64,000 nucleotides of DNA, taken from the IMG/VR virus record IMGVR_UViG_3300015214_000024, positions 9,787-73,786 of that record, one strand, 5' to 3'. A program made the translations under genes and the position numbers. A model generated the notes under the pieces. That model saw only the letters and a list, made by a program, of their open reading frames with translations, made no database searches and was not told the DNA's origin. This DNA is from a virus. Its lineage: Duplodnaviria; Heunggongvirae; Uroviricota; Caudoviricetes. Shown piece after piece: positions 3,333-63,859 of this stretch. Position 1 is the stretch's first letter. The number at the start of each line of letters is the position of its first letter.

Positions 3333-3554
3333 ATGGCGAAGCGATCATTTTGGCAGCCAACTGGTGGCGGCTACAATGTGTTCTATGCGGAATACAGATC
3401 CCGCGAGGATCCTACAATCAAACTGTGGAAACGATGCTCCTCCGGCAAGGAACGTGAGGAGTTCATTCGTGAGCAAAGCTTGATCATTCGGCGGTTTGAG
3501 ACTGAGAAAGAGTATCTGGATTTCTACAACTTTCTGTCGACATTAGTGGCATAG
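3333..3554 (+). CDS. hypothetical protein (73 aa), TAG stop
   Basis: internal ATG with GGAG-like RBS; preceded by TCCGTGGA hairpin; ends in rare TAG. Confidence 0.45.
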   Translation: MAKRSFWQPTGGGYNVFYAEYRSREDPTIKLWKRCSSGKEREEFIREQSLIIRRFETEKEYLDFYNFLSTLVA

Positions 3555-4718: not shown

Positions 4719-4751
4719 CAACCCGTGTGTAAGAACGTAATCAAGAACACG

Positions 4752-5492
4752 ATGGCCCGTCTGCCCTGGGAGAAGAAGGCAGAGTTCAATATCCGGCTCA
4801 CGCTAGTGCGGGCTGCTAAGCGGCAGCGGCTCTGGGTAGAGCAAGATGGCAAATGTCACTACTGCGATCAAGAAACAGTATTGCCCAGGCCAGGACAAAA
4901 CAACCGTGGCGGCAATCTGGCAACGTTAGACCACATCATTACACAGAGCAATGGTGGGACTGATAGCCTCAACAATCTGGTCGTCGCCTGCCATACTTGC
5001 AACAGCAACCGCCTTGATATGGATTATGAAATTTTTTATAATCTAATGAAGACTCCTGGTGCTTGGAAAGAACATTGTGCTGAAATGGCCCGGCAGAAAG
5101 CGGCTCGTGATGAAGAACGTCGCAAAGCAAACCTTCGCCGTCACGAAGAACTCCTGGCAATGGAAAAAGCTGCCGCATCTGCTCGCCAAATGGAACGGCT
5201 CCGCAAACACGCTCCGAATGTGATCAAATTTGCTCAGCGTGAGGGTTTTATTCTTCCTACTGATCCTGAAGAGCGTATCCAATGGGCTATCAATTATCAT
5301 CTTGAACAAGCTCGGCTCCACAAAATGTTCGGTCCTAATGGTGACAACCTTTTGAAGGATTGGCTCCATCGATCAAACTTCGCACCACGGAAGGATGGCC
5401 GTGGATGGGTAGCTATCCAGGAATGCTCTTCCAGGGACCCTCTTCCGTGGAGGGACTTGACTGGAGAGACGGAATTCTATATTATGAATTAA
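4752..5492 (+). CDS. HNH homing endonuclease
   Basis: CHYCD...LDHIITQSNGGTDSLNNLVVACHTCNSNR HNH motif; ends 3 nt before tRNA. Confidence 0.7.
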   Translation: MARLPWEKKAEFNIRLTLVRAAKRQRLWVEQDGKCHYCDQETVLPRPGQNNRGGNLATLDHIITQSNGGTDSLNNLVVACHTCNSNRLDMDYEIFYNLMKTPGAWKEHCAEMARQKAARDEERRKANLRRHEELLAMEKAAASARQMERLRKHAPNVIKFAQREGFILPTDPEERIQWAINYHLEQARLHKMFGPNGDNLLKDWLHRSNFAPRKDGRGWVAIQECSSRDPLPWRDLTGETEFYIMN

Positions 5493-5494
5493 TC

Positions 5495-5572
5495 GCAGGC
5501 GTAGTGCTCAGTGGCAGAGCCGGGGTCTCTAAAACCCGTCGGTCGTGGGTTCGATGCCCACCGCTTGCACCA
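5495..5572 (+). tRNA. tRNA with anticodon CUA (candidate amber suppressor), CCA encoded; atypical 4-nt spacer between acceptor and D stems
   Basis: acceptor GCAGGCG/CGCTTGC (one G-U), D-arm GCTC-AGTGGCA-GAGC, anticodon loop CUCUAAA, T-arm GTGGG-TTCGATG-CCCAC, A73-CCA, then T5. Confidence 0.5.
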
Positions 5573-5587
5573 TTTTTAGGAGGTTGA

Positions 5588-5821
5588 ATGGTTGACATTA
5601 AAATCGTTTTTGACCGAAAACTAGACATTGTTGAGCTAGAAGTCTTAGCGGCGAAATTTCGGTCTGGAATGTCAACCCATACTTCTTATAAAAAAAAGCC
5701 ATATGTATCTGGTTTAGCCAACACTGCGGTTATTTCAATACCCAAAAAGCATCTTTATAGTGTTATTAACTATCTTCTTACTTTCCCTGAAATCAAATAT
5801 GCGGATCCAATGTATGACTGA
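5588..5821 (+). CDS. hypothetical protein (77 aa)
   Basis: AGGAGG RBS. Confidence 0.6.
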   Translation: MVDIKIVFDRKLDIVELEVLAAKFRSGMSTHTSYKKKPYVSGLANTAVISIPKKHLYSVINYLLTFPEIKYADPMYD

Positions 5822-6197
5822 AAATGATGTCGTAAACAGTCAAGCATTCAAAGTCATCAACCTGATGATTGACCAGAAGGCTGAAGAACTCAAGCGATAT
5901 ATGCTCGGTCTCAAGGACCGTACTGAGATTCTGTTCCGTGAACAGAAATATCCTCCAGCCGTTCGCACTCGCATCCATTGTGAAAATCCTCGCAATAGTG
6001 GTGCCTACACAGCACTTCCAGCCCACCCCCACGAGGTCAAAGACCTTCAGCACTACCTAGATTCAATCGCCACGTTGGAGAAGGAAATCAACGAACTCCA
6101 GAAGATGAAATGTCGCTTGACTGGCGACTGGGATTTCACTAATGGTGATACATCCGATATGGAAGCCGTTTTTGGCGAAAAGATTGAAGGTATGTGA
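5814..6197 (+). CDS. hypothetical coiled-coil protein (127 aa)
   Basis: ATGACTGA overlap with upstream stop. Confidence 0.5.
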   Translation: MTENDVVNSQAFKVINLMIDQKAEELKRYMLGLKDRTEILFREQKYPPAVRTRIHCENPRNSGAYTALPAHPHEVKDLQHYLDSIATLEKEINELQKMKCRLTGDWDFTNGDTSDMEAVFGEKIEGM

Positions 6198-6772
6198 TGT
6201 ACATCAAGAATTTCCTTAACAAGAATATGTGCTCGAAGTATTTCGAGATGTTCTGGAATGACCTTGATTGGGAGCGTCGTCCGGATGCTCCGCGTCGCGA
6301 ATATTGGACTAACCTGTATGACCGCGATTATACATATGGCCGAGGTGCTGGCATTCGCACCTATCAGGCCCGTGAAGGACACCCAGATATTTGGGCTATC
6401 GGAACCTATTCAGAAATGGAAGCCTTTGACCACGGTATGATGGACAATGGCCAGATGTTTGAGGGGTGCTTCCTCAATGGTTACGAAGGGGCAAGGGACT
6501 GGCTGGGCTGGCACGCCGATGACGATCCAGCTATCGATCACAGTAAGCCTATCGCCATCGTGACACTGTATCGTGAGCCCGAGAAGAAGCCGCGTGTAAT
6601 CCAGTTCAGGGACAATGCTACGCAGACAGTTGAATCTGTCGAACTACACCACGGCTCCTTGTATTTGATGCCGCCCGGTTTTCAGTTTACACATCAGCAT
6701 CGAATCCCTAAAGCGGGATTTGAATGCAGTGACCGGATCTCCCTCACATTCAGGGGCTTAGTAAAAAACTAA
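6197..6772 (+). CDS. alkB: AlkB-like 2OG-Fe(II) dioxygenase (nucleic acid demethylase)
   Basis: HxD (GWHADDD), distal His (FTHQHRIP) and RISLTFR motif; TGATG coupling. Confidence 0.75.
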   Translation: MYIKNFLNKNMCSKYFEMFWNDLDWERRPDAPRREYWTNLYDRDYTYGRGAGIRTYQAREGHPDIWAIGTYSEMEAFDHGMMDNGQMFEGCFLNGYEGARDWLGWHADDDPAIDHSKPIAIVTLYREPEKKPRVIQFRDNATQTVESVELHHGSLYLMPPGFQFTHQHRIPKAGFECSDRISLTFRGLVKN

Positions 6773-14867: not shown

Positions 14868-15548
14868 ATGACAGAAGTATCCCGCTACCCTCGAACACTA
14901 CACTGGCCAACTAGCCCTGGGGTGCAGTCCGATGACAAGATTCATCGAGACATTGATCGCCTGATCGGGATGCCGGTCACTATCACGGAAAAGATGGACG
15001 GCAGCAACGTAACTCTCTGCAATGGAGAAGTTTATGCTCGTTCCACAGCCGTATCTAGTCAACACGCTTGGCACGGTATGGTGCGAAAGCACCACGCTTG
15101 GAAGACTCAAGAGCTTGGTCCAGACTATAAAATCTGTGGCGAAGATATGTATGCCATCCATTCAATTGAATATGATGGCTTCCGAGAAGATGAGACTTTT
15201 CGAGTCTTTAATATCCTCTACAAAGATACTTGGCTGTCGTTTGCTGATCGAGCTGCTCTTTGCCAACAGCTTGGGCTTATGATGGCCCCTGTTTGGATTA
15301 CTGGGGCCGTGTTCCAGAATCAAAAAGACGTCGACAAATGGTTCGCAAATGTTATGAAGATGGGAAGCAAGCTCGGCCCTGTCAGCGAAGGATTTGTAAT
15401 TCAGATCGAAGACGCCTTTCATAAAGATGATTTTCGAAATTGTGTTGCGAAATACGTTAGGGCTGGCCACGTTCAAACAGATCAACACTGGTCAAGGAAC
15501 TGGAAGCCTTGTAGGCTACTTCGTCCGTCGACGGACTTCCATCCGTGA
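14868..15548 (+). CDS. ATP-dependent RNA ligase-like nucleotidyltransferase (PF09414-type)
   Basis: motif I TEKMDGSN, III GEDMYA, IV EGFVIQ, V KYVRAGH. Confidence 0.6.
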   Translation: MTEVSRYPRTLHWPTSPGVQSDDKIHRDIDRLIGMPVTITEKMDGSNVTLCNGEVYARSTAVSSQHAWHGMVRKHHAWKTQELGPDYKICGEDMYAIHSIEYDGFREDETFRVFNILYKDTWLSFADRAALCQQLGLMMAPVWITGAVFQNQKDVDKWFANVMKMGSKLGPVSEGFVIQIEDAFHKDDFRNCVAKYVRAGHVQTDQHWSRNWKPCRLLRPSTDFHP

Positions 15549-24217: not shown

Positions 24218-24892
24218 TTAGTCGTTATTGCTGAAAATACCCATAATGCGCAGGATATACAGGAACATATTGACAAAGTCCAGATAAAGCTCGAGAGCGC
24301 CGGAAATTGCCATCACGTCATCGCCGTAACCTTGATTATAAAGGTCCTTGATCTTCTGTGTATCATAAGCTGCAAGTCCGGCAAATAGCAACACGCCAGC
24401 AAAAGAAACAGCAAGTGTAAACACAGTGCTAACGATAAACATATTGAGGATCAAGAGACCAATCATACCAAACAGTGCAATGGTAAAGAAAGATCCAAGG
24501 CTGCTCATATCAATCTTAGTCGTATAACCAAATAGACTCGTACCAGCAAAGCCGACAGCAGTAGCAAAGAATGCCTGAGCGATCAGTCCCAGCTTGTATG
24601 TGAGAAAGATAGTAGACATACTGGCGCCCATTGCTGCCGCCAGAGCAAGAAACAGAGCGCCGTGGACCATTGGATCACGTGGCAAAAGCCACATACCCAA
24701 AAGTGCAGCAAATGGTGACAGGATGACAGCCCAAGTCATTACCGGCGATGCCAGCATCGCAACAGTAGCACCGCTGGTGAACATAGCCCAAGCAACGCCA
24801 CCAGTGAGAACGAGACCAAGTGTCATCCAATTGTAGACCTTGAGCATAAAGCTGCGCAAGCCTGAATCATAGGAAACAGTAGCAGTAGTCAT
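24218..24892 (-). CDS. Bax inhibitor-1/YccA family membrane protein
   Basis: 7-TM; C-terminal AAYDTQKI..LY..G.......ALELYLDF.N.F family signature. Confidence 0.7.
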   Translation of the reverse strand: MTTATVSYDSGLRSFMLKVYNWMTLGLVLTGGVAWAMFTSGATVAMLASPVMTWAVILSPFAALLGMWLLPRDPMVHGALFLALAAAMGASMSTIFLTYKLGLIAQAFFATAVGFAGTSLFGYTTKIDMSSLGSFFTIALFGMIGLLILNMFIVSTVFTLAVSFAGVLLFAGLAAYDTQKIKDLYNQGYGDDVMAISGALELYLDFVNMFLYILRIMGIFSNND

Positions 24893-24906
24893 TTTCAAAT
24901 TCCTCC

Positions 24907-25569
24907 TTAAAGGATAATTGTGCAGATAATCAGTGCAGAGATGCCAGTAGTAATAAGACCGCCAAGTGCGCCGCTCCACCAAATTTCATCGGCATCGCGG
25001 TATTGGTATTCTGTCACATACTTCTTATTCATTAGTCCAAACAACACAGGCTTGGTCTCGAATGCTTTCGGAGTGCGACGAAAAGTATTCCACACCTTAA
25101 AGAAAGCGAACCAAATCGTGATCACGAACGGAATGCCGATGACAATCCCGCCCAGCTTAGACCAGAAAAGATAAATGGTAATGAGGATGCCGGCTGGTGT
25201 GCGAAGGAAGTCATTGACTGCAATGCCTAGTTCCTTTGCAGTCTGCCCAATAGCCGACCCAAACTCCTTGGCAAGGCCTGCCCATTCCCTGACATTATCA
25301 GGACTCAAAGTCTCACCAACAGGGGCGGCTGCCTTGACTGAATCGCAGGCGCGGCGGACATTGATAATGTCCTGATCTGACATCTGGCTGATATCGAGAG
25401 CATTACAATTAAGTGATGCACCGTCTGGCCCTTTAACCATAGCGGTTGCAACCGTACCAACAGCAGCGCCAGCAGCAGCCGAAACAGCAGTAGATGTGTC
25501 ATCAGCAAAAGCTGGAGTGGTGATGGCCATAGCAGCAGCCAACATAGAAATCAGAGCAAACTTACGCAT
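24907..25569 (-). CDS. secreted/membrane-anchored protein (signal peptide + C-terminal TMs)
   Basis: MRKFALISMLAAAMAITTPAFA signal. Confidence 0.55.
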   Translation of the reverse strand: MRKFALISMLAAAMAITTPAFADDTSTAVSAAAGAAVGTVATAMVKGPDGASLNCNALDISQMSDQDIINVRRACDSVKAAAPVGETLSPDNVREWAGLAKEFGSAIGQTAKELGIAVNDFLRTPAGILITIYLFWSKLGGIVIGIPFVITIWFAFFKVWNTFRRTPKAFETKPVLFGLMNKKYVTEYQYRDADEIWWSGALGGLITTGISALIICTIIL

Positions 25570-28544: not shown

Positions 28545-29333
28545 TCAACCACAAATAATAGCAGTAGCAATCATTTCTGGAGTTGGATCGTTTATAAAAT
28601 CAATCGACTTAGGTTGGTTCATAATAGCTGACCACTTGACTGACCGGCTAGGAGATTTAACTCGTGAAATGTTAGATGGGCCGTGCTTGACATATTCTAT
28701 TGATGCTGCCTCTGGCGGGTTTTTGATTTTGAGATAATAGCTAGGGTCATTGGCAATAGCAATAACCATAGCTTCTGGACAAGGACGACGTATTGAACGA
28801 ATAAGATGATGATTCTTATTCATTGCATAAAGTTGTTCAGCTACAGTTGGATTACTAATGTGCTGGATGTTTTCTGGATAACGCTCAAGTGCTATCTTAC
28901 GCACAGTTTTGGTTGGATGCTTGAAGAAACAAAACGACATCGGTGCCGAACGTAATGCAAGCATCTGTAATTCAGTCGTCTGTTGCTTAACAAACTGAAT
29001 TGCGTTACCGTCATTACCTACCGCAGCAAAAATCATCGCCTTCGTAGGATTACGAAAGTTTTGAAGATTCATACCATACAACGCACAAGATTTAACAAGT
29101 GCGTCTGGATGAATGTTCCGAATCATCTTATAAGCATTCTTTGGATCTTTTTCAATAGCAAAGAGCTGAAGATCTGTCTCAGGATAGCGGATGAACTGAA
29201 TTGCTTTCCAGTTGTTAGTTACTGCTACAAGCTGGACTGGTCGTGGAGGATTCTTCATCCACTTGATAGCGAGCGGATCAGAAGCCAATTTCAGTATAGC
29301 TTGCTCAATCTCCGTCTGAGACCAGCTTTGCAT
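28545..29333 (-). CDS. DUF4116-like repeat protein (paralog 2)
   Basis: NPPRPVQLVAV..NWKAIQFI repeats. Confidence 0.6.
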   Translation of the reverse strand: MQSWSQTEIEQAILKLASDPLAIKWMKNPPRPVQLVAVTNNWKAIQFIRYPETDLQLFAIEKDPKNAYKMIRNIHPDALVKSCALYGMNLQNFRNPTKAMIFAAVGNDGNAIQFVKQQTTELQMLALRSAPMSFCFFKHPTKTVRKIALERYPENIQHISNPTVAEQLYAMNKNHHLIRSIRRPCPEAMVIAIANDPSYYLKIKNPPEAASIEYVKHGPSNISRVKSPSRSVKWSAIMNQPKSIDFINDPTPEMIATAIICG

Positions 29334-30048
29334 AGCTTACCATCTCCGGTGAAGGATTTCGAATCTTCTTGATGAGAGTCCCATCAGCGTAGAGAGCAGC
29401 CCAACAGCATTCTTCAGTCTGATTGACCATAAGCTCAATCTGATCAGGGTATTCAGTAATATGACGCAGAGCAATGTCTTCGTCAATCTCGTTCAAATAA
29501 TGGATGCCATCATCTGGACGTTCTTTGAGGATGAATTCCTGATGATCACGATGAGGATGCTTAACCCATTCAATTGAACAAGGATTTTCCTTGATCATCA
29601 TCGCGACCATTTCATATGTAGGCTCATTGATGAACTGAGCATTTTTGTGATCGTGTCCAATCGCAATTACTTGCAACACGTGATCTGGATTCTGAATGTG
29701 CTTGATGGCATCACCATCACGAGTAACTGCTCGATGCTGTTGAGCGTACGAAGGATTTTCGATGAGGCTAATACAATTGCCATTGATACTAATGGCTGAA
29801 TCAAGGACCTTCTGATCAATGTCAGAGATCATTTCGACCAATTCAAAGATACCATCGCGATCGATATAGCCCTGTGCCTTGATGGCTTCCTGCTGCTCAA
29901 GCACAGTAGGATTATCAAAATACTGGATAGCTGTAGGAGAACGCTGGATAGCCGCCATACGGAAATCTTCGTCAATTAGATCCTTGGGGACCATCCTGAC
30001 GAGGTTACCATTTTGTTTGATCAAGTTCAGGGCGTATTCGCGGTCCAT
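29305..30048 (-). CDS. DUF4116-like repeat protein (paralog 3)
   Basis: LIKQNGNLVRMVP...AIQRSPTAIQYF repeats. Confidence 0.6.
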   Translation of the reverse strand: MDREYALNLIKQNGNLVRMVPKDLIDEDFRMAAIQRSPTAIQYFDNPTVLEQQEAIKAQGYIDRDGIFELVEMISDIDQKVLDSAISINGNCISLIENPSYAQQHRAVTRDGDAIKHIQNPDHVLQVIAIGHDHKNAQFINEPTYEMVAMMIKENPCSIEWVKHPHRDHQEFILKERPDDGIHYLNEIDEDIALRHITEYPDQIELMVNQTEECCWAALYADGTLIKKIRNPSPEMVSYAKLVSDGD

Positions 30049-30096
30049 AACAATTCCTCTAAATTTCCATATCTATACTGGATTAATTGTTATGCG

Positions 30097-30750
30097 TCAA
30101 CCACAAAGTATAGCGTAGCTTTTCTGTTCTTTGGTCAGGTTCATAATTCCATATTCTTGCGGGAATTCTTGAACCAAATCCCACCATTGATCAGTGGTTA
30201 GATTGTGATTCTTGAGATCAATTTTGCCGCGGCGGAATGATTGATTCTTACCCATAGCTATTGCCAGCTTGATAGCATAGACATCGGCATTAACAACCTC
30301 ATTGATTAAAGAATAATTATCATCCAATGCCAATAGTTGGGCATCAAGGCACGGATGTTTGATTCGAGTTATAGCTTTCGAAATGTTGGCTACTGCTGCC
30401 TTTTGAACAGTTTCAGACGGTTCTACGATCAAACCAACTAAAAGGCCATTCTTTGAAATAGCCTCAAGCTGGACTTCTTCATCCGGATCTGGAATATATT
30501 TGAGAGCTCGGGGGTCATTCCTGACAGCAAAGAGCTCAATAGACTTATCCTGTTTCGGGAGGCCACGCAAAGCAACGATATTTCGTTTGATGGCCAACTT
30601 GACCAATTCGGGACTCGGATTGTCCAGATGCCAAATGACCTGATAATTGATTTCAACAGCCTTAACCAGGAACTCTGGCGAGGGGTTTTGTATTCGAGAA
30701 ATTTGGGTCGGATCATTCCGTATCCGACCCAGCTGTAACGTTTTCAACAT
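30097..30750 (-). CDS. DUF4116-like repeat protein (paralog 4)
   Basis: repeats; C-terminal EQKSYAILCG. Confidence 0.6.
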   Translation of the reverse strand: MLKTLQLGRIRNDPTQISRIQNPSPEFLVKAVEINYQVIWHLDNPSPELVKLAIKRNIVALRGLPKQDKSIELFAVRNDPRALKYIPDPDEEVQLEAISKNGLLVGLIVEPSETVQKAAVANISKAITRIKHPCLDAQLLALDDNYSLINEVVNADVYAIKLAIAMGKNQSFRRGKIDLKNHNLTTDQWWDLVQEFPQEYGIMNLTKEQKSYAILCG

Positions 30751-31582: not shown

Positions 31583-32413
31583 TTACTTAATGTTGATGAA
31601 CGGGGTCGTTCCAGGACCAGCAATGACCTGCGGCACATCGCCGTTCCACTTCTTGATCGCTTCCTGCTGGAGGATCTCAGGATTGGTGCGGATAGCTTCA
31701 CCGCGGACTCGCATAGCTTCAGCCTCACCAGTTGCTTCTGCAACCTTCGATTCTGCTTCTGCCTTCGCCTTAGCGACGTTTGCCTGAGCAGCAAGAGCAG
31801 CCTGTTCGTTGGCGATCTTCTGGTTGATCTGAGCCTGCACCTGCTTCGGCATACGAATGTCCGACGCCCAATACAGTTCGTCAACTACCAGGCCTTGCTT
31901 GGCGAAGTATGCACGAACCCTCACCAGGGCCTTCGCGATCAGCTCAGCCTTACGAGGACCATAAATTTCCTCAACGCCCATCTGCGATGCTTCCTGCACA
32001 ATCGCATTGCGGATGTTATTGCGCATCGGGCCGGCGACCAAGCGATCCATTTCCATACGATATGTAGTGAACAGCTTTGGAGCCAGGGCAGGATCGACTC
32101 GATAGGCCACCGAAACATCAGCGCTCAGGCCGAGACCGTTCTTGTCCTGGAACGTGAATGCTTCGCTGTTCGGGCTCTGGTCAGTTGAATCAGCTGTCCA
32201 GGCGTAAGTGTTGGTGAAGGTCGGATATTCGTACATATTCACGCCTGGAGGGGTGAAGTACCAACCAACACCCTTGGCGACTTCGTCAACGCCACCGCCG
32301 AGGTTGCTGACCTTGATACCAACATAGCCCGGAGTGACTCGGGTAAAGCTGCACGAACCGACGAGCAGCACGATAAAAAGTGCAATAGCACCAAGAACAA
32401 ACTTAAAATTCAC
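31583..32413 (-). CDS. SPFH/band-7 (prohibitin/HflC-like) membrane protein
   Basis: N-terminal TM, SPFH core, C-terminal Ala/Glu-rich coiled coil. Confidence 0.65.
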   Translation of the reverse strand: MNFKFVLGAIALFIVLLVGSCSFTRVTPGYVGIKVSNLGGGVDEVAKGVGWYFTPPGVNMYEYPTFTNTYAWTADSTDQSPNSEAFTFQDKNGLGLSADVSVAYRVDPALAPKLFTTYRMEMDRLVAGPMRNNIRNAIVQEASQMGVEEIYGPRKAELIAKALVRVRAYFAKQGLVVDELYWASDIRMPKQVQAQINQKIANEQAALAAQANVAKAKAEAESKVAEATGEAEAMRVRGEAIRTNPEILQQEAIKKWNGDVPQVIAGPGTTPFINIK

Positions 32414-32795: not shown

Positions 32796-32870
32796 TGGTG
32801 CGGGGTGAGGGATTCGAACCCCCAACCTACCGGTTATGAGCCAGCTGCTCTACCGTTGAGCTAACCCCGC
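32796..32870 (-). tRNA. tRNA-Met (anticodon CAU; elongator or Ile-lysidine type)
   Basis: cloverleaf: GCGGGGT acceptor, D GCTC/GAGC, loop CUCAUAA, T-loop TTCGAAT, CCA encoded. Confidence 0.85.
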
Positions 32871-35780: not shown

Positions 35781-36160
35781 TTCAGGATATGGAAAAGAAC
35801 AGCGCCGCTATCAATTGCGTCATTCACAGTCTTTTCATCCATTACTGCACTGTCTTCGAACCAGTGTTCCGTTGCACCAGTTTCTTCAGAAGTCCAAGAT
35901 GCATTATTAGTTACTTCAAATGGGCCGTAGAAATTGATTATTGACCCAGAATCATACGCACTGATGGGAGTTTCTTTTTTATAACGTTCCCTCAATCCAT
36001 AGCAGTAGGCCAGCAATTCTTCTTTAGTATCTCGGGTGATGACTTCAGTCTCATTAAATTCATTGACAGAATGATAGCGCGAGTCTGAGTTCTCACGAAC
36101 ATTAACCAGCACAGTAATCATCATCCAAGATGTTGTGCGAGTCACGCAAACTGTGACCAA
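35777..36160 (-). CDS. hypothetical protein (127 aa)
   Basis: ORF. Confidence 0.5.
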   Translation of the reverse strand: MVTVCVTRTTSWMMITVLVNVRENSDSRYHSVNEFNETEVITRDTKEELLAYCYGLRERYKKETPISAYDSGSIINFYGPFEVTNNASWTSEETGATEHWFEDSAVMDEKTVNDAIDSGAVLFHILK

Positions 36161-36408
36161 TTTTCGTCAATGTATGATTTGATATCATAGGGAGTGACTA
36201 CGTGGCGTTCGATCGGATTGCGAGGATAGCCCATCAATTCGCTGGTAGTGATCTCAATAGATTTGCGAATATCTTTGATAATCACAACAAACCCATCAGT
36301 CATCCAGAACAGTTCTCGGCCATTGACTTCAATAGACCTGTATCCTTTGGGCTTTTTCATCCGGTTCAGGTTAGGATCATCACCACGAACTTTACGACGT
36401 TTTTCCAT
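36142..36408 (-). CDS. hypothetical protein (88 aa)
   Basis: ORF. Confidence 0.45.
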   Translation of the reverse strand: MEKRRKVRGDDPNLNRMKKPKGYRSIEVNGRELFWMTDGFVVIIKDIRKSIEITTSELMGYPRNPIERHVVTPYDIKSYIDENWSQFA

Positions 36409-37714: not shown

Positions 37715-37797
37715 TGGTGCCCCTGGCCGGACTCGAACCAGCACTCCGAAGAATTCGATTTTGAGTCGAACGCGTCTACCAATTTCACCACAGGGGC
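37715..37797 (-). tRNA. tRNA-Leu (anticodon CAA), long variable arm
   Basis: acceptor GCCCCTG/CAGGGGC, anticodon arm TTCGA-CUCAAAA-TCGAA, T-loop TTCGAGT, CCA encoded. Confidence 0.8.
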
Positions 37798-41799: not shown

Positions 41800-42990
41800 T
41801 TACTGAAGTTCAGTCGTTTCACCCTTGCGTGTCAGATAATCAGGTGATACCATCTTAAGCATCTTGCGGCCAATGAAGCCAGTATCAGCATTGTCGTCAT
41901 CACGGATGACAATACCTTCCTTGAGAGTCTTACCGTCAATTGACGACTTGCCATCACGCAGTGTGATCAGGTCAGCATCACCATATCGGCCCTTGAACAG
42001 TAGCGGAACCGTTTCAACACCCAAGCTCTTGGTGACTTTTTCAAAATTCCGATATGAATCAACCTCGCCGTCAGACACTGTATCAAATGCCAGGAACTTC
42101 GGCGGAGTGCTGTAGCCAAGATCCTGAATGCCTTGGCCAAAAGTTTCGCCAAGAATCAGGAATGCTGATTCGTTTTCAGTCTCACCATACAGGTTAGCAA
42201 GCTGCTCAGAGGTTCGCGAATCAAGGAACGTCTTGAGCGACCTCATATAGAGATTCTTGGCCAAGTTCGTTTCGTTGGCCCTGAAGCAGAGCCCCTTAGA
42301 ACCAAGGCCCTTACTATATGCAGTAGCATACAAGGTGCCTTCCTCAGTCACAACTTCCAAGAAATCTTCACGCTTTTCAGTCGTAAAGATGAAACCGGTA
42401 AAAGTGCCGTGAAGCTTTTCAGTAATATTCACAATGTCGTCAGGGAAGAAGACATTTTCGAACTTCTGAGCATTTTCAATGTCGAACTTGTAGATGAGAT
42501 CATACGAATGACTGAACACTTCACCACCCATACTGGCTGGAATAGGCGGCTCATACTTCGTGATGCCAAGCTGTTCAGCAACGTCCCAGCCGATGCCCAC
42601 CTTGTGGATTTCGCCATCAGCCATACGCATCCACTTGCGGTAATGCGTACCAGTTTCTTCGTTAGTGATGCCACAGCAGGGATAGATAACACCCTGGCTC
42701 AAGATGCCGCGCAGCCGCATTGCCTTGATACGATCGCCGTTAGATCCGTTAAGACGGCCTTTGCCCTTCTCATCGTCCCAAAAATCCAACTCCTTGAGGA
42801 GCCATTCAGGAAGCACTGAGCCTTCCGGGATATATGCAACAGGATCACCATCCTTATAGCGATGGCTCCCATCTTCCAGCTTCGCGCTAATACACGTAAA
42901 GCCGTTGATATCAAGAAGGCTTAGCCTGTCAGCATTCGGATGATCACGAACGTTCTTGACCTGCTCAACCAGCACTTCAAACTTAGACAT
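41800..42990 (-). CDS. RNA ligase (Rnl2/PF09414 family) fused to N-terminal tRNA-binding (EMAP/Myf-like) domain
   Basis: N-term VEQVKNVRDHPNADRLSLLDI...MRLRGILSQG; ligase motifs I EKLHGT, III LILGETFG, IV EGIVIR, V KMLKMV. Confidence 0.7.
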   Translation of the reverse strand: MSKFEVLVEQVKNVRDHPNADRLSLLDINGFTCISAKLEDGSHRYKDGDPVAYIPEGSVLPEWLLKELDFWDDEKGKGRLNGSNGDRIKAMRLRGILSQGVIYPCCGITNEETGTHYRKWMRMADGEIHKVGIGWDVAEQLGITKYEPPIPASMGGEVFSHSYDLIYKFDIENAQKFENVFFPDDIVNITEKLHGTFTGFIFTTEKREDFLEVVTEEGTLYATAYSKGLGSKGLCFRANETNLAKNLYMRSLKTFLDSRTSEQLANLYGETENESAFLILGETFGQGIQDLGYSTPPKFLAFDTVSDGEVDSYRNFEKVTKSLGVETVPLLFKGRYGDADLITLRDGKSSIDGKTLKEGIVIRDDDNADTGFIGRKMLKMVSPDYLTRKGETTELQ

Positions 42991-44142: not shown

Positions 44143-44513
44143 TTTACAGTTCCTGCCTTTTAGTTTTATTTATTTTCACAAGATATAGTAAAAAACAGCC
44201 GATTTAAACACAATCAGTAGATTATCTACTACATTTAGTAGTATGACACTACATCTATGTACTACATATAGTAGTGGCTCAAATAATTAAAATTCTTGCA
44301 TTTTTCACGTATCGATACATAGGATTTTTGACATTTTTTACCACATACTATATGTTGTGGTGAATAGTGCTGATTCAACACGATATAGCACAAGATATAG
44401 TAGCTAGATCTAGTTTTTGGCTTATTTCAATTTTTTTTCGTCATATTAGAAAAATCTGTTGACTCGTTCCGGCATTCATATAGAAGGGCTTGGTAATCCA
44501 AGAAGGAATCAAA

Positions 44514-45686
44514 ATGTTCAAGTTTGTCCACATTTACCACCTCGACGACGTGCGTCACGCGATCTCGGAAGACTTCTTCCTGGCAGAGCGCGATTGGGGA
44601 TATGTGATCAACTATCACATCAACGCTTTTCCGGAAATCAAGGACGAGATGAGCGACGAGGAAAAGGCGCTTGAATATGCTCGTCGTGAATTCCGCGGCA
44701 TCAAGTTTGCCAAGGATGGTACGCTGCTGGCTCGTCCGTTCCACAAGTTTTTCAACTGGGGTGAGAAGGAAGCTGAGATGGCTCAGTTCGACTTCGATAT
44801 GCCTTTCGTGATTATGGACAAGCTGGATGGTTCGATGATCCATCCGATGTTGGTGGATAACAAGATCGTGTGGTGCTCCAAGATGGGCCCGACGGATGTT
44901 GCCCTACAGGCCGAAGCGTTTGTGGGAACCCATCCGGAATATGTGGAGTTTGTGCTGGCTGCTATGGGCGGCGGCTATACTCCGATTTTTGAATGGTGCT
45001 CGCGTAAGCAGCGCATTGTGGTCGACTATCCGGAAGATGCACTGATCCTGACTGCCATCCGCGACAACCGGACTGGCGAATATGTGGGTATGCCGTCAAT
45101 GAAAGCGAAGGCTGAGCATTACGGTATCCCGGTGGTGAAGACCTGGAATGGCACCTTCAACGGCATCACGGACTTTATGGAAGCCGTTGGTGGTGAAGAG
45201 CAGTGTGAGGGTTATATCATCCGGTTCGAGAATGGCCATATGGTCAAGCTCAAGAACGCCTGGTACTTGAATCTGCACCGTGCCAAGGATCAGCTGAGCA
45301 ACGAAAAGAATGTCTACCGTCTAGTGCTCAGCGAGCATCACGATGACCTCTTGCCGCAGTTGGATCCGGATACCCGCAAGGCTCTGGAAAACTTTGCTTC
45401 TGACCTGAGCAACGCTGTGAAGGTACAAGCTGCTACGCTGGCCAACGCTGTGGCTGAGAATTGGAAGCTCTACAGCAACCGCCGTGATTTTGCTCTCAAC
45501 TTTGGTAGCAAACAGGAACTCTCCGCCGTGGTCTTCAAGATCCTGGATGGTAAGGATTCCTACGAAGCTCTTGTTGATTGGCTGCTGGCTCAGACGTCGA
45601 CTCAAGCCAAGCTGGATGCTGCTAAGAAGAAGTTCGGTCAGCTCAACTGGTCGGAATATTATTACGCGGTGGATATGGATGGCTAA
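44514..45686 (+). CDS. rnlA: RNA ligase 1 (T4 RnlA-like)
   Basis: collinear similarity to T4 Rnl1: FRGIKFA, PFHKFFNWGE, motif I IMDKLDGSM, DNRTGEY, EGYIIRFENGHMVKLKNAWY. Confidence 0.8.
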   Translation: MFKFVHIYHLDDVRHAISEDFFLAERDWGYVINYHINAFPEIKDEMSDEEKALEYARREFRGIKFAKDGTLLARPFHKFFNWGEKEAEMAQFDFDMPFVIMDKLDGSMIHPMLVDNKIVWCSKMGPTDVALQAEAFVGTHPEYVEFVLAAMGGGYTPIFEWCSRKQRIVVDYPEDALILTAIRDNRTGEYVGMPSMKAKAEHYGIPVVKTWNGTFNGITDFMEAVGGEEQCEGYIIRFENGHMVKLKNAWYLNLHRAKDQLSNEKNVYRLVLSEHHDDLLPQLDPDTRKALENFASDLSNAVKVQAATLANAVAENWKLYSNRRDFALNFGSKQELSAVVFKILDGKDSYEALVDWLLAQTSTQAKLDAAKKKFGQLNWSEYYYAVDMDG

Positions 45687-46390: not shown

Positions 46391-47512
46391 ATGCGTCCCA
46401 TCGAAGTTTCTGAAGCAATTAGCGTTTACGCTACTGCTAACGTCCCCGTTATGCTGTGGGGACAGCCGGGCGTTGGCAAGTCGGACGTTGTCCGCCAGCT
46501 TGCTGCCAAGACCCCGGGCAAGTTCCTCAACCCGCTGACGGGCAAGAAGGAACGCAAGGTTTTCGACGTTCGCCTCGCACTGCTGGATCCGACCGACCTG
46601 CGCGGCATTCCCTACTACGACCCCGAGATGAAGACCGCCCGCTGGGGCCAGTCCTGCATCCTTCCGATGATGGGCCGTGAGGAAGACGAGGATGCTATCC
46701 TGTTCCTCGACGAGATCAACTCCGCTCCCCCGGTTATCCAGGCAGCCGCTTACCAGCTTGTCCTCGACCGCAAGGTTGGCGAATACGAGCTTCCGAAGGG
46801 CGTGACGATTATCGCTGCTGGTAACCGCCAGTCCGACAAGGGCGTGGTGTTCCAGATGCCCACTCCGCTGCTCAACCGCTTTGCCCACATTGACTTTACG
46901 GTCAGCAACGACGACTGGATCGAATTCGCGGTCGGCGCCGGCATCCACCCCAGCATCATCGGCTTCATCAACTTCAAGAAGGATATGCTCAACAAGTTCG
47001 ACAGCCGTGGCAAGAACTCCGCGTTCGCTACCCCGCGCGCCTGGGCGTTCCTGGACCGCGTTATCCGGGCTGCTGAAGCTGCTGGCACCAAGGACACGAT
47101 GATCCGCAAGCTCGCAGACGGCGTGGTTGGTGAAGGCGCTGCTGTTGAGTTTATGAGCTACCGCAAGTCCGCGGAGAAGCTTCCGAACCCGGACAGCATC
47201 CTCGATGGAACGCTGAAGAAGCTTCCGGAAGATGTCAAGCAGGATATCAGCATCCACTTTGCGCTCGTGACCAGCCTGGTTGCGGCCATCAAGGAACGCT
47301 TCGAGAACGCCAACAAGAACCCCAAGGACGAGAAGTTCGCGAAGGCTGGTGGTAACTTCCTCAAGTTCCTTAACACGGAACTCAAGGACGAGCTGACGCT
47401 GTTTGGCATCCGTTCAGCAATGAAGACTCACCAGGTTATGCTTGCTACTCTTCCCGAGTTCCGCACTGACGTTAACCAGAAGTTCCAGAAGGTGCTCTCA
47501 ATGGTTGGCTAA
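46391..47512 (+). CDS. MoxR/CbbQ/CobS-type AAA+ ATPase (AAA_5)
   Basis: Walker A GQPGVGKS, Walker B ILFLDEIN, sensor AAGN. Confidence 0.8.
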   Translation: MRPIEVSEAISVYATANVPVMLWGQPGVGKSDVVRQLAAKTPGKFLNPLTGKKERKVFDVRLALLDPTDLRGIPYYDPEMKTARWGQSCILPMMGREEDEDAILFLDEINSAPPVIQAAAYQLVLDRKVGEYELPKGVTIIAAGNRQSDKGVVFQMPTPLLNRFAHIDFTVSNDDWIEFAVGAGIHPSIIGFINFKKDMLNKFDSRGKNSAFATPRAWAFLDRVIRAAEAAGTKDTMIRKLADGVVGEGAAVEFMSYRKSAEKLPNPDSILDGTLKKLPEDVKQDISIHFALVTSLVAAIKERFENANKNPKDEKFAKAGGNFLKFLNTELKDELTLFGIRSAMKTHQVMLATLPEFRTDVNQKFQKVLSMVG

Positions 47513-47526
47513 TCCCCAACTATGTT

Positions 47527-47562
47527 GAGGGGTGGGGTTAATTTCTCCACCCCTCCTTTTTT
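47527..47562 (+). terminator. rho-independent terminator GAGGGGTGG...CCACCCCTC-T6
   Basis: 9-bp GC stem plus T-run. Confidence 0.75.
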
Positions 47563-47565
47563 GTA

Positions 47566-47594
47566 TTGACTGAGTTGGCTTGTCACTGTATAAG
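47566..47594 (+). promoter_or_regulatory. sigma70-like promoter TTGACT-N17-TATAAG
   Basis: upstream of vWA gene. Confidence 0.5.
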
Positions 47595-47622
47595 ATAAGT
47601 CTAACAAGCAAAGGAACGCTAA

Positions 47623-48870
47623 ATGAGTAATCCTACCGCATCCGAGATTATGACCGCAGGCCGGTTTTTTATGATGCAGAAGTTTCCGTTCTTCGCTTAC
47701 CTGCTCTTCAACCTCGAAGTTATTGAGCTCGGCGAGGATAACAATCCCTGGAAGCTTCAGACCGCTGCTGTTGACGGAAAGCGCTTCTGGTATAACCCTA
47801 GCTTCATCCAGGAAATTTACCAGGAAGGGCTCAAGGAGAGCAAGGAAATTGGTAACCACAAGGTGGCCTTCCTTTGCGCCCACGAAGTGATGCACTGTGC
47901 CCTTGGTCACTTGGGCCGCCGAATCGACCGCGATCCTGAAATCTGGAACCAGGCGGCAGACTACGCCATCAACGCGATGCTCGTTGAGGCGAAGCTCACT
48001 ATGCCCAAAATTGGTCTGTATGACAAGAAATACAGCGGTTGGTCGGCAGAAGAGATTTATGACGACCTGCTCAAGAATCCGGACAAGACCAAAGGTAAGT
48101 CCACGCTGGACGTTCACGCTGGCCAACCTGGCTTCCCTGGCGAGGGTGATGGCCAGGGCCAGGATCCTAATGGCGGCGGCGACCCGGCTGATGCCCTGAG
48201 CCCTGAAGAGCTTCAGGACCTCAAGGACCAGTGGGAAGAGAATATGGTCCAGGCTGCCCAAAACTGCAAGGACGCTGGTAACATTCCGGCCGGCTTTGAG
48301 CGACTGATCAAGAAGATCACTGAGCCCAAGGTTAAGTGGAACGAATATATCGAGACTGTCATCAAGTCGCTCGTGCGTTCGGACTACACCTGGCGCATTC
48401 CGAACAAGCGGGTGTTCGCTAACGGCATTACTATGCCCAGCTTGGACTATGATGACTCCGTGGAGATTGGCATTGCGATCGATATGAGCGGATCCATTAG
48501 CGACGAAGAAGCGGCTGTTTTCCTTGGGGAAATTAAGTCCATTATGGGACAGTTCACTAACTTCAAGATCCACATCGCTTGCTTCGATAGCGCTCTCCAC
48601 GCGCCCGCAACGCTGGAGAGTGAGGAAGACCTGGATAACTACGAACCCAAGGGCGGTGGCGGTACCACCCCTATGGCGTGGTGGAACTGGGCTATGAAGC
48701 AGGATTGGTACGATACGGTCGGTACTGTGATTATGTTCACGGACGGCTACATTGGTGGTCCAGAGCACTGGGGTCCGGGTGAGGAGAAGAGCCCTAACAC
48801 GATTTGGCTCGTGAAGGGCAGTGACTACGAGGGCCCATACGGTACCACGATCCTCTACGAAAAGCTCTAA
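47623..48870 (+). CDS. vWA-domain protein with N-terminal zincin-like HExxH domain (DUF2201/CobT-like partner of MoxR ATPase)
   Basis: HEVMHCALGH; MIDAS-like IAIDMSGSISDEE. Confidence 0.7.
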   Translation: MSNPTASEIMTAGRFFMMQKFPFFAYLLFNLEVIELGEDNNPWKLQTAAVDGKRFWYNPSFIQEIYQEGLKESKEIGNHKVAFLCAHEVMHCALGHLGRRIDRDPEIWNQAADYAINAMLVEAKLTMPKIGLYDKKYSGWSAEEIYDDLLKNPDKTKGKSTLDVHAGQPGFPGEGDGQGQDPNGGGDPADALSPEELQDLKDQWEENMVQAAQNCKDAGNIPAGFERLIKKITEPKVKWNEYIETVIKSLVRSDYTWRIPNKRVFANGITMPSLDYDDSVEIGIAIDMSGSISDEEAAVFLGEIKSIMGQFTNFKIHIACFDSALHAPATLESEEDLDNYEPKGGGGTTPMAWWNWAMKQDWYDTVGTVIMFTDGYIGGPEHWGPGEEKSPNTIWLVKGSDYEGPYGTTILYEKL

Positions 48871-49049
48871 CGGGCTCTCCATAGGGGCTTTCCCGTGCGC
48901 AAGTTAGCGTGGATGGGGCTGGCAGGTAACTGTCGGCCCCATCGTTTTGGCTTGTGCTTTATCCACAGAAATGCACAACTCGCCCTAAAATACTCATTGA
49001 CTCGTCGTTGGCATCTGCTATGTAGAAGATGCGTAGGAGGCGCACATCA

Positions 49050-51572: not shown

Positions 51573-52313
51573 ATGAGCACCCTCGAACGTTTAAAGGCGC
51601 AGTTCAATGTGATGGAGGATATCGTTGGCAAAGTTGCCTCCGGTAACCTCCGCGGGCTCATCATTACTGGTCCTGCTGGCATTGGTAAAACCTTCAACGT
51701 CCTCAAAACCCTCAAGGATTATCAGCTCTATGTCGCTCCCCTAGCTGGCATCCAGGCTGAGATTGAGGTTTGTGCCGGGCATATGACGACCGTAGGGCTA
51801 GTGCAAGCGCTGTGGCGTAATCGCCAAGAGGCTAACACCTTAGTGCTTGATGATATCGACACTGTGCTTGATACGCTCGATGCTATCAACATTCTCAAGG
51901 CGGCGCTTGATACTGGCAGTCAGCGTCACGTGTCGTATATGACTCAGAATGCTGCATTGCGTAAAGCAGGCATCCCTCAGCATTTCAATTTCAATGGTGC
52001 AATTATCTTGATCACAAACCAGGATATGGAAAATTGCAAGGGCAAGATGGCTCCCCATTTCAAGGCATTGGTGAGCCGCTGCTTCTATTTCGATCTCGGC
52101 TTTGAGGGTCGTGAAGACTGTATGACTTGGATCCAGCACGTTTCCGAAACTACTGGTATGCTGGGTGATGCAAAGAAAACTTCGGATATCCTCCGTTATA
52201 TGCGTCGCAACTTGAAGGACATTCGCGAGCTTAGCTTGCGCACTGCCGTCAAGCTTTCGTCCATTTACGGCAAAGGCTGGAAGGAAGTGGCTGATTTTAC
52301 GGTGTTGACATAG
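51573..52313 (+). CDS. AAA-family ATPase (P-loop NTPase)
   Basis: Walker A GPAGIGKT, Walker B LVLDDID. Confidence 0.6.
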   Translation: MSTLERLKAQFNVMEDIVGKVASGNLRGLIITGPAGIGKTFNVLKTLKDYQLYVAPLAGIQAEIEVCAGHMTTVGLVQALWRNRQEANTLVLDDIDTVLDTLDAINILKAALDTGSQRHVSYMTQNAALRKAGIPQHFNFNGAIILITNQDMENCKGKMAPHFKALVSRCFYFDLGFEGREDCMTWIQHVSETTGMLGDAKKTSDILRYMRRNLKDIRELSLRTAVKLSSIYGKGWKEVADFTVLT

Positions 52314-52361
52314 GATTCAAAATATTATATCAGCCGTGATATTGCTACAAGGAAAGGAAAT

Positions 52362-52520
52362 ATGAAGTACAATTATCGCCAGTACGATGAGGAAGATTAC
52401 AGCCTGGGTGATGAATACCGGGATAGTAAGCGTTCCCGTCGTGACAAGCGCGCTCGTGGCAAATATCGCCGCGACTCATTTGAAGGTCGTGATCGCGATG
52501 ATGATTGGGGATGGAACTGA
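52362..52520 (+). CDS. small highly charged Arg/Asp/Tyr-rich peptide (52 aa)
   Basis: AAGGAAAGGAAA RBS; TGATG coupling to next gene. Confidence 0.35.
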   Translation: MKYNYRQYDEEDYSLGDEYRDSKRSRRDKRARGKYRRDSFEGRDRDDDWGWN

Positions 52521-63205: not shown

Positions 63206-63611
63206 ACCCATATTCACCCAAGTTGATGTAGCTGGGGAGGTTATAGATTGCCCCCAGACAGAACACGAATGGCTCTACCCAGATGAGTATGTGGGAAAGA
63301 ACATAATTTGGTTTATGGCCCATCACATTTGTTTAAACGATTTTGTCAGCACGGAAACGATTAACCGTTTTTTCCGAGTAGAAGGAAGTTGGAAACTTTT
63401 AAGTCAGATTCTTTCAATGGCCAATGGTCACGAATATCTTAATATAATTGACAATGCAAGAGAACACGTGACTGATTTGGATTTGCAGGAGCCATTGATT
63501 AGGATTATACTGGACAAACACAATTCAGGTTTGTACGAAGTATTTGTCAAAATGACAAAAAACCCATATTTAAAAACCGCTCGCCACAACATATGGAATT
63601 TCTTGAAATGA
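63192..63611 (+). CDS. hypothetical protein (139 aa)
   Basis: GGAAGAG RBS; 4x CCACGGA repeats immediately upstream. Confidence 0.5.
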   Translation: METYEPIFTQVDVAGEVIDCPQTEHEWLYPDEYVGKNIIWFMAHHICLNDFVSTETINRFFRVEGSWKLLSQILSMANGHEYLNIIDNAREHVTDLDLQEPLIRIILDKHNSGLYEVFVKMTKNPYLKTARHNIWNFLK

Positions 63612-63859
63612 ATGAGGAAGATGCAAACAAAATACTTTTCTACAATGGTTTCACGTGGGAATTTAATAAAGAATATCCGTCCACAATCAGTCTTCAGACG
63701 GTAATGGAATTGACTGATCCAAACATACAGGAAGGTATTGTCCACATTCTAAAGGCAAGTTTTAATGAGCCCAGAATAATTGAAAAATTTATTGACCAAC
63801 TTTCTCCCACGGAAGAACTAAAACAACTGAGGATGACTATATGGCAAATGATTCGCTAG
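63608..63859 (+). CDS. hypothetical protein (83 aa), TAG stop
   Basis: coupled; rare TAG terminator. Confidence 0.45.
   Translation: MNEEDANKILFYNGFTWEFNKEYPSTISLQTVMELTDPNIQEGIVHILKASFNEPRIIEKFIDQLSPTEELKQLRMTIWQMIR

Follow-up and report, generated by a model that had tools for sequence, protein, structure and literature searches.

Phages that keep the standard genetic code can nevertheless carry tRNA genes with the anticodon CUA, which reads the amber codon UAG. The jumbo phage XacN1 carries two such suppressors in each terminal repeat, and a search for targets of read-through in this phage, which has 18 amber stops, found none (PMC5852040); RsoM2USA carries one (PMC8504454), and Sinorhizobium phage Phosso has a gene annotated as tRNA-Pyl(cta) (PV764938). 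Suppressor tRNAs also occur in phages that use genetic code 15, in which TAG is reassigned to glutamine (crAss-like, Lak, and other gut phages; bioRxiv 10.1101/2021.08.26.457843; PMC9523058; PMC13037316). Here, we describe a 78-nucleotide (nt) tRNA gene with anticodon CUA at positions 5495 to 5572 (+ strand) of a 64,000-nt stretch of tailed-phage DNA (IMG/VR record IMGVR_UViG_3300015214_000024, positions 9,787 to 73,786), referred to below as the window. The locus was first picked out in an annotation made from the sequence alone (the original prediction). From comparison with related phages, we conclude, with a probability of roughly 0.65, that the gene is real, under selection, and probably functional as an amber suppressor. 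The presence of such a tRNA in a jumbo phage with the standard code is already on record; what the present family adds is a variant architecture, found in the window copy, and the replacement of suppressors by mobile cassettes, found in relatives.

The window resembles XacN1, RsoM2USA, and Phosso in being part of a standard-code jumbo phage with few amber stops, no identified read-through target, and a CUA tRNA with an A36-A37-A38 loop, and XacN1-type phages share with it an AlkB homolog (∼40%) and a domain of a 625-amino-acid (aa) open reading frame (ORF). Unlike the window copy, however, the tRNAs of these three phages have a canonical cloverleaf with a 2-nt connector between the acceptor and D stems, and they sit in large tRNA arrays rather than beside a recognizable HNH gene; the XacN1 copies lie in tandem, two to a terminal repeat, and differ in their acceptor stems and discriminators. 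The window phage is only a distant relative of all three: the ATPase of Phosso matches at 36%, and no genes near the Phosso tRNA are held in common. Laboratory amber suppressors (Escherichia coli supE, supF, and su7; T4 psu1+) are likewise tRNAs with an anticodon changed to CUA that compete with release factor 1 (RF1), and su7 arose by a loop change from tRNA-Trp(CCA), from which the window loop is also one substitution removed. Those suppressors are selected mutants of sense tRNA genes, whereas that of the window is a wild-type, phylogenetically conserved gene.

A conserved tRNA gene with anticodon CUA

ARAGORN called a tRNA with anticodon CTA at exactly 5495-5572 (+), in agreement with the anticodon given in the original prediction; the "Pyl" label attached to the call is nominal, as ARAGORN prints it for every CTA anticodon. 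The false-positive rate was gauged on 9.6 Mb of dinucleotide-matched random sequence (first-order Markov sequence built from the window), which gave a single tRNA call and none with CTA. The call at 5495-5572 is therefore far beyond chance. ARAGORN made two other calls in the window, tRNA-Met(CAT) at 32796-32870 and tRNA-Leu(CAA) at 37715-37797. Related loci, numbered with the prefix L, were recovered through two anchors: the AlkB gene at 6194-6772 and the HNH gene that adjoins the tRNA. Eleven distinct family sequences were placed in a structural alignment made by hand. Written 5′ to 3′, the parts of the window tRNA are as follows.

5495-5501, + strand: 5′ strand of the acceptor stem, GCAGGCG, paired with 5562-5568 (7 bp, one of them G·U; pair probabilities, 0.94 to 1.0)
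5502-5505, + strand: connector UAGU, consisting of the canonical U8 and A9 and a 2-nt insert, GU (the connector is UA in canonical relatives)
5506-5520, + strand: D arm with stem GCUC/GAGC and loop AGUGGCA, in which A14, G15, G18, G19, and A21 are present
5521, + strand: position 26, a C that occurs only in the two tRNAs with a 4-nt connector and is absent from canonical family members; it has the option of pairing with the inserted G at 5504
5522-5538, + strand: anticodon arm GGGGU/ACCCG with loop CUCUAAA (four Watson-Crick pairs and a G27·G43 mismatch; U33 and A37 present)
5529-5531, + strand: anticodon CUA, which reads UAG (from the sequence and ARAGORN)
5539-5544, + strand: variable loop UCGGUC of 6 nt (5 nt in most relatives; also 6 nt in L051 and L013)
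5545-5561, + strand: T arm GUGGG-UUCGAUG-CCCAC (pair probabilities, 0.98 to 0.99)
5562-5572, + strand: 3′ strand of the acceptor stem, CGCUUGC, followed by discriminator A73 and an encoded CCA (A73 and CCA in 11 of 11 family members)

On the fold with a 4-nt connector, the core tRNA nucleotides are all present (U8, A14, R15, G18G19, A21, U33, R37, Y48, G53-T54-psi55-C56, A58, and C61), and the D arm is the same or almost the same across the 11 family members. The anticodon arm has the 7-nt loop and, with the 27:43 mismatch included, the 5-bp stem of an elongator tRNA. The connector departs from the two nucleotides (U8 and N9) of elongator tRNAs, as it reads UAGU in the energetically preferred fold.

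Orthologs bear out the tRNA gene with anticodon CUA and encoded CCA that the sequence and ARAGORN indicate. A CTA tRNA was called by ARAGORN at the syntenic position in all loci with an AlkB identity of at least 55% and enough flanking sequence, namely, L004, L005, and L007 to L011 (79 to 81% AlkB identity) and L001, a 465,259-bp IMG/VR contig, together with L013 to L016 (55 to 57%). The HNH-anchored loci L048 to L052 (59 to 97% HNH identity) also carry a CTA tRNA. More distant AlkB loci have other tRNAs or none; L002, for instance, has Glu(TTC) at this place, and both L022 and L028 have Lys(CTT/TTT). Across the 11 family sequences, 222 of 231 stem cells (96%) are standard pairs, with 2 to 5 pair types at most positions. 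Like A73 and CCA, U33-C34-U35-A36-A37 is invariant in all 11 sequences, and the CUA anticodon is also found in the XacN1 and Phosso homologs. The tRNA bodies of the family diverge to ∼70% identity while CUA, U33, and A37 stay fixed.

Between the window tRNA and its ortholog in L007 (79% identity), stems differ by double compensatory changes at 3:70, 6:67, and 31:39 (U-A versus A-U) and by one G·U-compatible change, with no disruptive change. The 27:43 position is mismatched in L007-type orthologs too, as C·A instead of the G·G of the window. Judged by synteny, alignability, and these compensatory changes, the window tRNA is orthologous to strong, canonical, unambiguous CUA tRNAs of related phages. 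The recovered sequences describe a suppressor family with a constant location, on the upstream side of an AlkB-like gene, that is shared by a clade of phages of ∼465 kb with the standard code wherever seen. L007-type tRNAs additionally match sites annotated as "tRNA-TERM," "tRNA-Pyl," or "tRNA-OTHER" in Aeromonas and Stenotrophomonas phages.

Fold, covariance-model scores, and the 4-nt connector

The original prediction flagged a 4-nt spacer between the acceptor and D stems, and this spacer is real. A cloverleaf with the 4-nt connector and a perfect GCUC/GAGC D stem has a folding energy of −26.9 kcal/mol, compared to −19.8 kcal/mol for the fold drawn by ARAGORN, in which a 2-nt connector is combined with a GUGC/GAGC D stem that contains a G·A mismatch. 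The minimum free energy (MFE) fold, at −31.6 kcal/mol, uses another D pairing and draws the variable loop into a longer anticodon stem. The hairpin GGGU[CUCUAAA]ACCC is common to the cloverleaf, ARAGORN, and MFE folds (pair probabilities, 0.73 to 0.78). A better fold with a sense anticodon, which had been raised as grounds for doubting the locus, was not found in any fold evaluated, since the anticodon hairpin is the same in all three.

Rejection by a covariance model had been raised as a second ground for doubt, and in formal terms it occurred. At the Rfam RF00005 gathering score (29 bits), 5495-5572 was not reported, while the Met and Leu tRNAs of the window were found with 69.9 and 54.7 bits; canonical family members score 61 to 73 bits on this model. 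The collapse of the score is attributable to the UAGU connector and the 6-nt variable loop. We do not accept it as a refutation because both insertions are conserved in the diverged locus L051, where they are accompanied by compensatory stem changes.

In a permissive Rfam scan, the best tRNA-clan match of 5495-5572 was tRNA-Sec (RF01852), with 30.8 bits where the gathering score is 47; this model scores best here because it can accommodate additional nucleotides near the D arm. A tRNA-Sec identity was rejected: tRNA-Sec has the anticodon UCA, a long variable arm, and an 8/5 or 9/4 acceptor/T geometry, whereas the window tRNA has the anticodon CUA, no long variable arm, and a 7/5 geometry. A tRNA-Pyl identity was rejected as well. 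That tRNA is marked by a 3-nt variable loop, a 6-bp anticodon stem, a small D loop lacking G18G19, the absence of T-psi-C, and a 1-nt connector; the window tRNA possesses G18G19 and T-psi-C, a normal D loop, a 5-bp anticodon stem, a 6-nt variable loop, and a 4-nt connector.

The tRNA at 5495-5572 is base-for-base identical in ENA ERZ27247376 and in Logan SRR8449813 and SRR22388272 (L044, L045, and L048). Because these assemblies come from other samples and contain the same 2-nt insert, an assembly artifact was rejected as its origin. Another tRNA(CUA) with a 4-nt connector (UAGA), C26, and a 6-nt variable loop lies at L051:4771-4848, next to an HNH gene whose protein is only 61% identical to that of the window. 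Some 11 positions distinguish the two tRNAs, among them both partners of the stem pairs 5:68 and 28:42, which have changed in a compensatory manner, and the L051 copy reaches its 37.6 bits on RF00005 only through a shifted acceptor register. In both sequences, the inserted G could pair with C26; in the window, this extra pair (G5504-C26) is energy-neutral (−27.0 versus −26.9 kcal/mol). A pattern search for further tRNAs with a 4-nt connector retrieved none from IMG/VR, and GTDB genomes gave one chance match, in a Kribbella chromosome with no tRNA at that site.

An alternative is that the family is functional but the window allele is not: damaged by its two insertions (of 2 nt and 1 nt) and by the G·G mismatch, it would be a pseudogene or a very weak suppressor. 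The abnormal connector length, the >30-bit shortfall on RF00005 relative to canonical orthologs, and an MFE fold that competes with the D stem would all fit a decaying copy. Such a copy would not be expected to leave the universally conserved tRNA nucleotides, the anticodon loop, and CCA intact, to differ from L007 by zero stem-disrupting substitutions, or to recur as the identical sequence in assemblies from several samples. Moreover, L051 keeps the architecture despite its ∼11 other differences, among them two double compensatory stem changes. We consider decay unlikely. Because stem pairing was kept after the insert arose, the window allele is better read as a conserved structural variant, and we take the architecture shared by the window and L051 to be functional.

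The HNH neighbor and the replacement cassettes

The gene that adjoins the tRNA on its 5′ side is as follows.

4725-5492, + strand: HNH endonuclease ORF, 255 aa from a GTG start (Pfam HNH, E = 1.6e-8; PHROG HNH families)

The ENA gene call for this ORF is somewhat shorter (246 aa; 4752-5492). An HNH endonuclease does adjoin the tRNA, as originally predicted, although at a distance of 2 nt rather than 3, as the TAA of the ORF ends at 5492. The accompanying suggestion of a typical mobile arrangement of a tRNA and a homing endonuclease gene stands only in part. Orthologs of the HNH protein (50 to 97% identity) precede a CUA tRNA in every locus examined. No presence/absence polymorphism of the gene was seen, as it is present at the same site in all orthologous loci recovered through the AlkB or HNH anchor. 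A homolog search meant to reach other parts of the 465-kb genome through HNH paralogs returned none. What does travel with the CUA tRNA in relatives is a different protein, which combines a zinc finger with an HNH motif (zf-HNH).

The flanks of L004 and L010 are 97 to 98% identical, but the resident tRNA of L004 is split (L004:1118-1854 versus L010:5408-5482). Its remnants comprise 16 nt of the 5′ end (1118-1133) and 34 nt of the 3′ end (1821-1854); 25 nt, including the anticodon arm, have been lost. Between them, a 687-bp insert holds a complete CTA tRNA, which differs from the resident one and scores 61.8 bits on RF00005, together with an ORF of 185 aa whose product combines a C2H2 zinc finger at the N terminus with an HNH motif. 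At L049:10802-11468 and L050:2212-2878, a homologous ORF of 179 aa, in which Pfam detects both domains above threshold, follows a further, different CTA tRNA, and the resident tRNA is almost gone; these two loci have the HNH closest to that of the window (74%). Each zf-HNH cassette thus carries a different CUA tRNA. As read from these loci, the cassette of tRNA(CUA) and zf-HNH gene invades the suppressor gene and always brings a replacement suppressor. Since the cassettes that split or replace a resident suppressor each bring a CUA tRNA, amber suppression appears to be under selection, and we regard this replacement as an indirect but strong indication.

Free-standing homing endonucleases of phage tRNA regions, of which T4 SegB and the HNH genes of the T5 tRNA region are examples, are likewise encoded by genes interleaved with tRNA genes. 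The window's HNH gene is unlike these mobile endonucleases in being fixed in all orthologous loci, with no sign of recent mobility, while the cassette found in relatives differs from them in swapping one suppressor tRNA for another.

The tRNA might also be kept for something other than decoding, with CUA incidental: as a decoy or substrate for anticodon nucleases (PrrC, RloC, or PARIS-type effectors) or as a recognition or immunity element of homing endonucleases. Anticodon nucleases classically attack tRNA-Lys, and the window tRNA has a Lys-like body; the window also carries three RNA ligase genes and AlkB, and the tRNA gene is demonstrably targeted by an HNH cassette. A decoy for a Lys-specific nuclease would, however, be expected to keep a UUU or CUU anticodon. 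Instead, C34-U35-A36 is strictly invariant across very different bodies, cassette-borne replacements included, which argues for selection on UAG decoding and makes a non-decoding role very unlikely.

Genetic code and TAG usage

The window is 99.98 to 99.99% identical to independent assemblies (ENA and Logan contigs) over 20.7 and 14.7 kb, and ENA contig ERZ27247376 k141_1276970 (465,559 bp), reached through an exact protein match, carries the window phage; the window corresponds to its reverse strand at roughly 144.7 to 208.7 kb. Our survey of the genetic code covers ∼70 kb of this genome and ∼150 kb of related loci. No in-frame TAG signal was detected in either, and the called genes are intact. 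With a greedy ORF caller, 85.5% of the window is covered under the standard code, compared to 85.4% if TAG is taken as sense, and related loci are alike; the in-frame TAG codons and higher coding density with TAG as sense that mark code 15 are thus not seen in the ∼70 kb. The original claim that the genome is not recoded as a whole holds for this part of the 465,559 bp, in which standard-code genes are intact, and can be asserted for that part only.

TAG stops are rare, as had been predicted: among 53 independently called genes of the window phage (∼41 kb), 26 end in TGA, 26 in TAA, and 1 in TAG. Crude ORF calls of the window gave TAG stops in 8 of 106 cases, several of them spurious. In relatives, the counts are 2/24 (L007), 1/31 (L010), 1/24 (L046), and 3/21 (L047). 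Of the two TAG-terminated ORFs originally cited, 3333..3554 and 63608..63859, the first is not called as a gene in independent assemblies. Longest-ORF calls can mislead such counts, an example being the TAG-terminated 457-aa ORF at 47509-48882 (−), an antisense artifact; the real gene there is a DUF2201 gene on the + strand (47623-48870). ORF joins that appear when TAG is read as sense are nearly all antisense to real genes and were rejected. Extensions after TAG stops are not shorter than those after TAA or TGA, and an all-frame BLAST between loci with TAG translated as X was swamped by the conservation of noncoding frames. The AlkB gene of L013 (L013:3223-3807), which lies ∼1 kb downstream of the suppressor tRNA, ends in TAG.

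These counts bear on whether the suppressor serves a switch of code, that is, a TAG-to-sense recoding of late structural and lysis genes in the ∼400 kb outside the window. Jumbo phages with code 15 and CTA tRNAs are on record (PMC13037316), and recoded phages keep their suppressor tRNA and replication genes in standard-code regions, with in-frame stops in late genes (bioRxiv 10.1101/2021.08.26.457843). The window resembles them in that its CUA tRNA lies in a standard-code part of the genome and the matching stop codon is depleted, a rarity that has been proposed as a precursor state of recoding; since the window holds accessory or early-type genes only, recoding of late genes would not show in it. 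The window differs from code-15 phages in several respects. No in-frame TAG occurs in the genes seen, and the body of its tRNA is Lys-like rather than Gln-like. Neither release factor 2 (RF2) nor a cognate aminoacyl-tRNA synthetase was found among the window ORFs scanned, and no ribozyme match that could be a theta ribozyme was found in 5400-5680. The GC content of the window is 46%, not the low GC tied to recoding by Borges et al., and TAG is the bona fide stop of a conserved ATPase. The most similar GenBank tRNAs, in addition, belong to cultured phages annotated and described as standard-code, among them XacN1 with its amber stops and no targets. A code switch therefore seems quite improbable to us.

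The original prediction also entertained programmed read-through of selected genes, by which C-terminally extended isoforms of TAG-terminated phage proteins would be made. The sole TAG-terminated gene among those called, an AAA ATPase at 51573-52313, happens to share its frame with the ORF that follows, a highly charged one of 52 aa (51573-52520; 315-aa fusion), an arrangement that we take to be coincidental. Tested on this gene, however, the proposal was rejected: all homologs of the ATPase share the same C terminus, and relatives end in TAA or TGA, with the small ORF in other frames and preceded by its own ribosome-binding site (RBS). The authors of the XacN1 study likewise found no targets (PMC5852040). 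We consider programmed read-through extremely unlikely.

Amino acid identity and proposed mechanism

The best GenBank matches of the window tRNA include two annotated suppressors, those of Phosso (469 kb; 83.8%) and XacN1 (tRNA-Sup; 81.7%), and an unannotated site in Xoo-sp13 (84.5%). Annotated tRNA-Lys genes of GenBank phages match at 85.5% and 82.6%, and the nearest sense tRNAs among the recovered loci are also phage tRNA-Lys (74 to 79%). A single substitution separates the loop CUCUAAA from the loop of tRNA-Lys(CUU), and a single one likewise separates it from that of tRNA-Trp(CCA). All family members have G1-C72 and A73 and lack a long variable arm. Under E. coli identity rules, U35 and A73 favor lysyl-tRNA synthetase (LysRS), and G1-C72 with A73 disfavors glutaminyl-tRNA synthetase. 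Lysine is our best guess for the amino acid carried, at low confidence.

Two observations on the suppressors of the described phages may be recorded here. In XacN1, the two tandem tRNA-Sup genes at 36047-36205 (L054:3909-4067) share identical D, anticodon, and T arms; their acceptor stems are unrelated, with A73 in one and G73 in the other, as if one core had been given two acceptor identities. In Phosso, the tRNA(cta) is followed by 1.3 kb without annotated genes (446807-448102; L041:12068-13363), in which there is no long ORF under the standard code or with TAG as sense.

We infer the expression, charging, suppressor activity, and physiological role of the tRNA as follows. It would be transcribed from a sigma-70-like promoter at the end of the HNH ORF or within a + strand operon. 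Host RNase P and 3′-end processing would then release it; its CCA is encoded in the gene. A host aminoacyl-tRNA synthetase would then charge it, most likely with lysine in view of the Lys-like body, the main LysRS determinants A73 and U35, and a loop one mutation from tRNA-Lys(CUU); glutamine is the alternative. The charged tRNA would compete with RF1 at UAG codons. As phage genes almost never end in TAG, the phage would be largely insulated from its own suppressor. The role that we favor, tentatively and as one possibility, is therefore the read-through of UAG stops in mRNAs of the host or of co-infecting competitors during takeover, rather than a recoding of phage genes; an action on host amber codons had also been raised in the original prediction and stays a hypothesis.

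Gene neighborhood and expression signals

The elements that surround the tRNA, apart from the HNH gene, are as follows.

5457-5485, + strand: candidate sigma-70-like promoter, TTGACT-17-TATTAT, which overlaps the 3′-terminal part of the HNH ORF and ends 10 nt before the tRNA
5588-5821, + strand: 77-aa ORF without a family match, starting 16 nt past the tRNA, with the RBS AGGAGG at 5578-5583
6194-6772, + strand: AlkB-like 2OG-Fe(II) dioxygenase (Pfam PF13532, E = 1.4e-9)

The −35 hexamer and the spacing of the promoter are invariant in L004, L005, L007, and L010. With a strong RBS and an ATG only 16 nt past CCA, the tRNA probably belongs to a + strand operon, from whose transcript it would be released by processing. 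The ∼250 bp that contain the 77-aa ORF (5588-5837) are absent from L010 and L007, where a ∼130-aa gene directly follows the tRNA.

The ENA contig that carries the window phage was deposited in NCBI as "MAG: Gammaproteobacteria bacterium," though it has the gene content of a huge phage and was probably mis-binned. The assignment to a phage, not a bacterium, is based on rIIA, rIIB, T4-type RNA ligases, HNH genes, tRNAs, and many small ORFs. No near relative of the window was found among GenBank phages; a search of IMG/VR with the tRNA gave no match, and the genome is absent from the GTDB representative genomes. Besides two rIIA paralogs, rIIB, three RNA ligases, and an AlkB-like dioxygenase, the window encodes AAA ATPases and a metallophosphoesterase as well as numerous small ORFs. 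The ORFs that were scanned include no genes for virion proteins, release factors, or synthetases. The RNA ligase genes lie at 14868-15548 (+), 41800-42990 (−), and 44490-45686 (+) and comprise one of the PF09414 type, one Rnl2-like, and one Rnl1/T4-like. Three RNA ligases and AlkB within 64 kb suggest a strong capacity for RNA and tRNA repair, possibly directed against tRNA-targeting host defenses.

Elsewhere in the window, tandem rIIA paralogs at 53042-55354 (770 aa) and 55434-57608 (724 aa) are followed by rIIB at 57664-59184 (+), with ∼30% identity to T4-like counterparts. Three adjacent paralogous ORFs with DUF4116 repeats occupy 28545-30750 (−). Nearby, a Bax1-I family membrane protein is encoded at 24218-24982 and an SPFH/Band-7 protein at 31583-32413.

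Discussion

Several points weigh against a functional amber suppressor at 5495-5572. We know of no precedent for a 4-nt connector between the acceptor and D stems among functional bacterial-type tRNAs, and the anticodon stem contains the G27·G43 mismatch. The locus falls below the RF00005 gathering score, and the cloverleaf is not its MFE fold, though this is common for tRNAs. Promoter matches are no more numerous than in shuffled sequences, and the conservation of the promoter, which lies inside the HNH coding sequence, may reflect coding constraint. The assignment to lysine is based on modest similarity, and a tRNA-Trp(CCA) ancestor would give an identical loop. In addition, TAG still ends at least one real gene of the window phage, and AlkB itself in L013, so that suppression cannot be both efficient and harmless. 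Ordinary genomes have ∼7% TAG stops, and the 1/53 of the window phage is not clearly below that share.

Our preferred reading remains that of a selected, probably functional suppressor. A bolder version of this reading would hold that the window and L051 tRNAs are an undescribed functional architecture, in which an inserted G-C26 pair is compensated by the 6-nt variable loop; that the suppressor is so needed by a clade of ∼465-kb phages with the standard code that invading homing-endonuclease cassettes must bring a replacement CUA tRNA; and that its job is the selective sabotage of UAG termination in the host or competing phages, against which the TAG-poor phage is protected, not recoding. Taken as a whole, we regard this version as doubtful.

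Suppressor tRNAs are probably undercounted in phage surveys because generic covariance models miss the variant with the 4-nt connector. The matched natural alleles, one canonical and one with an expanded core, let the tolerance of translation for deviations from the cloverleaf be tested, and they could serve as orthogonal suppressor scaffolds. Natural amber suppressors in phages without recoding of their own are a documented puzzle, to which this locus adds comparative evidence of selection on suppressor function.

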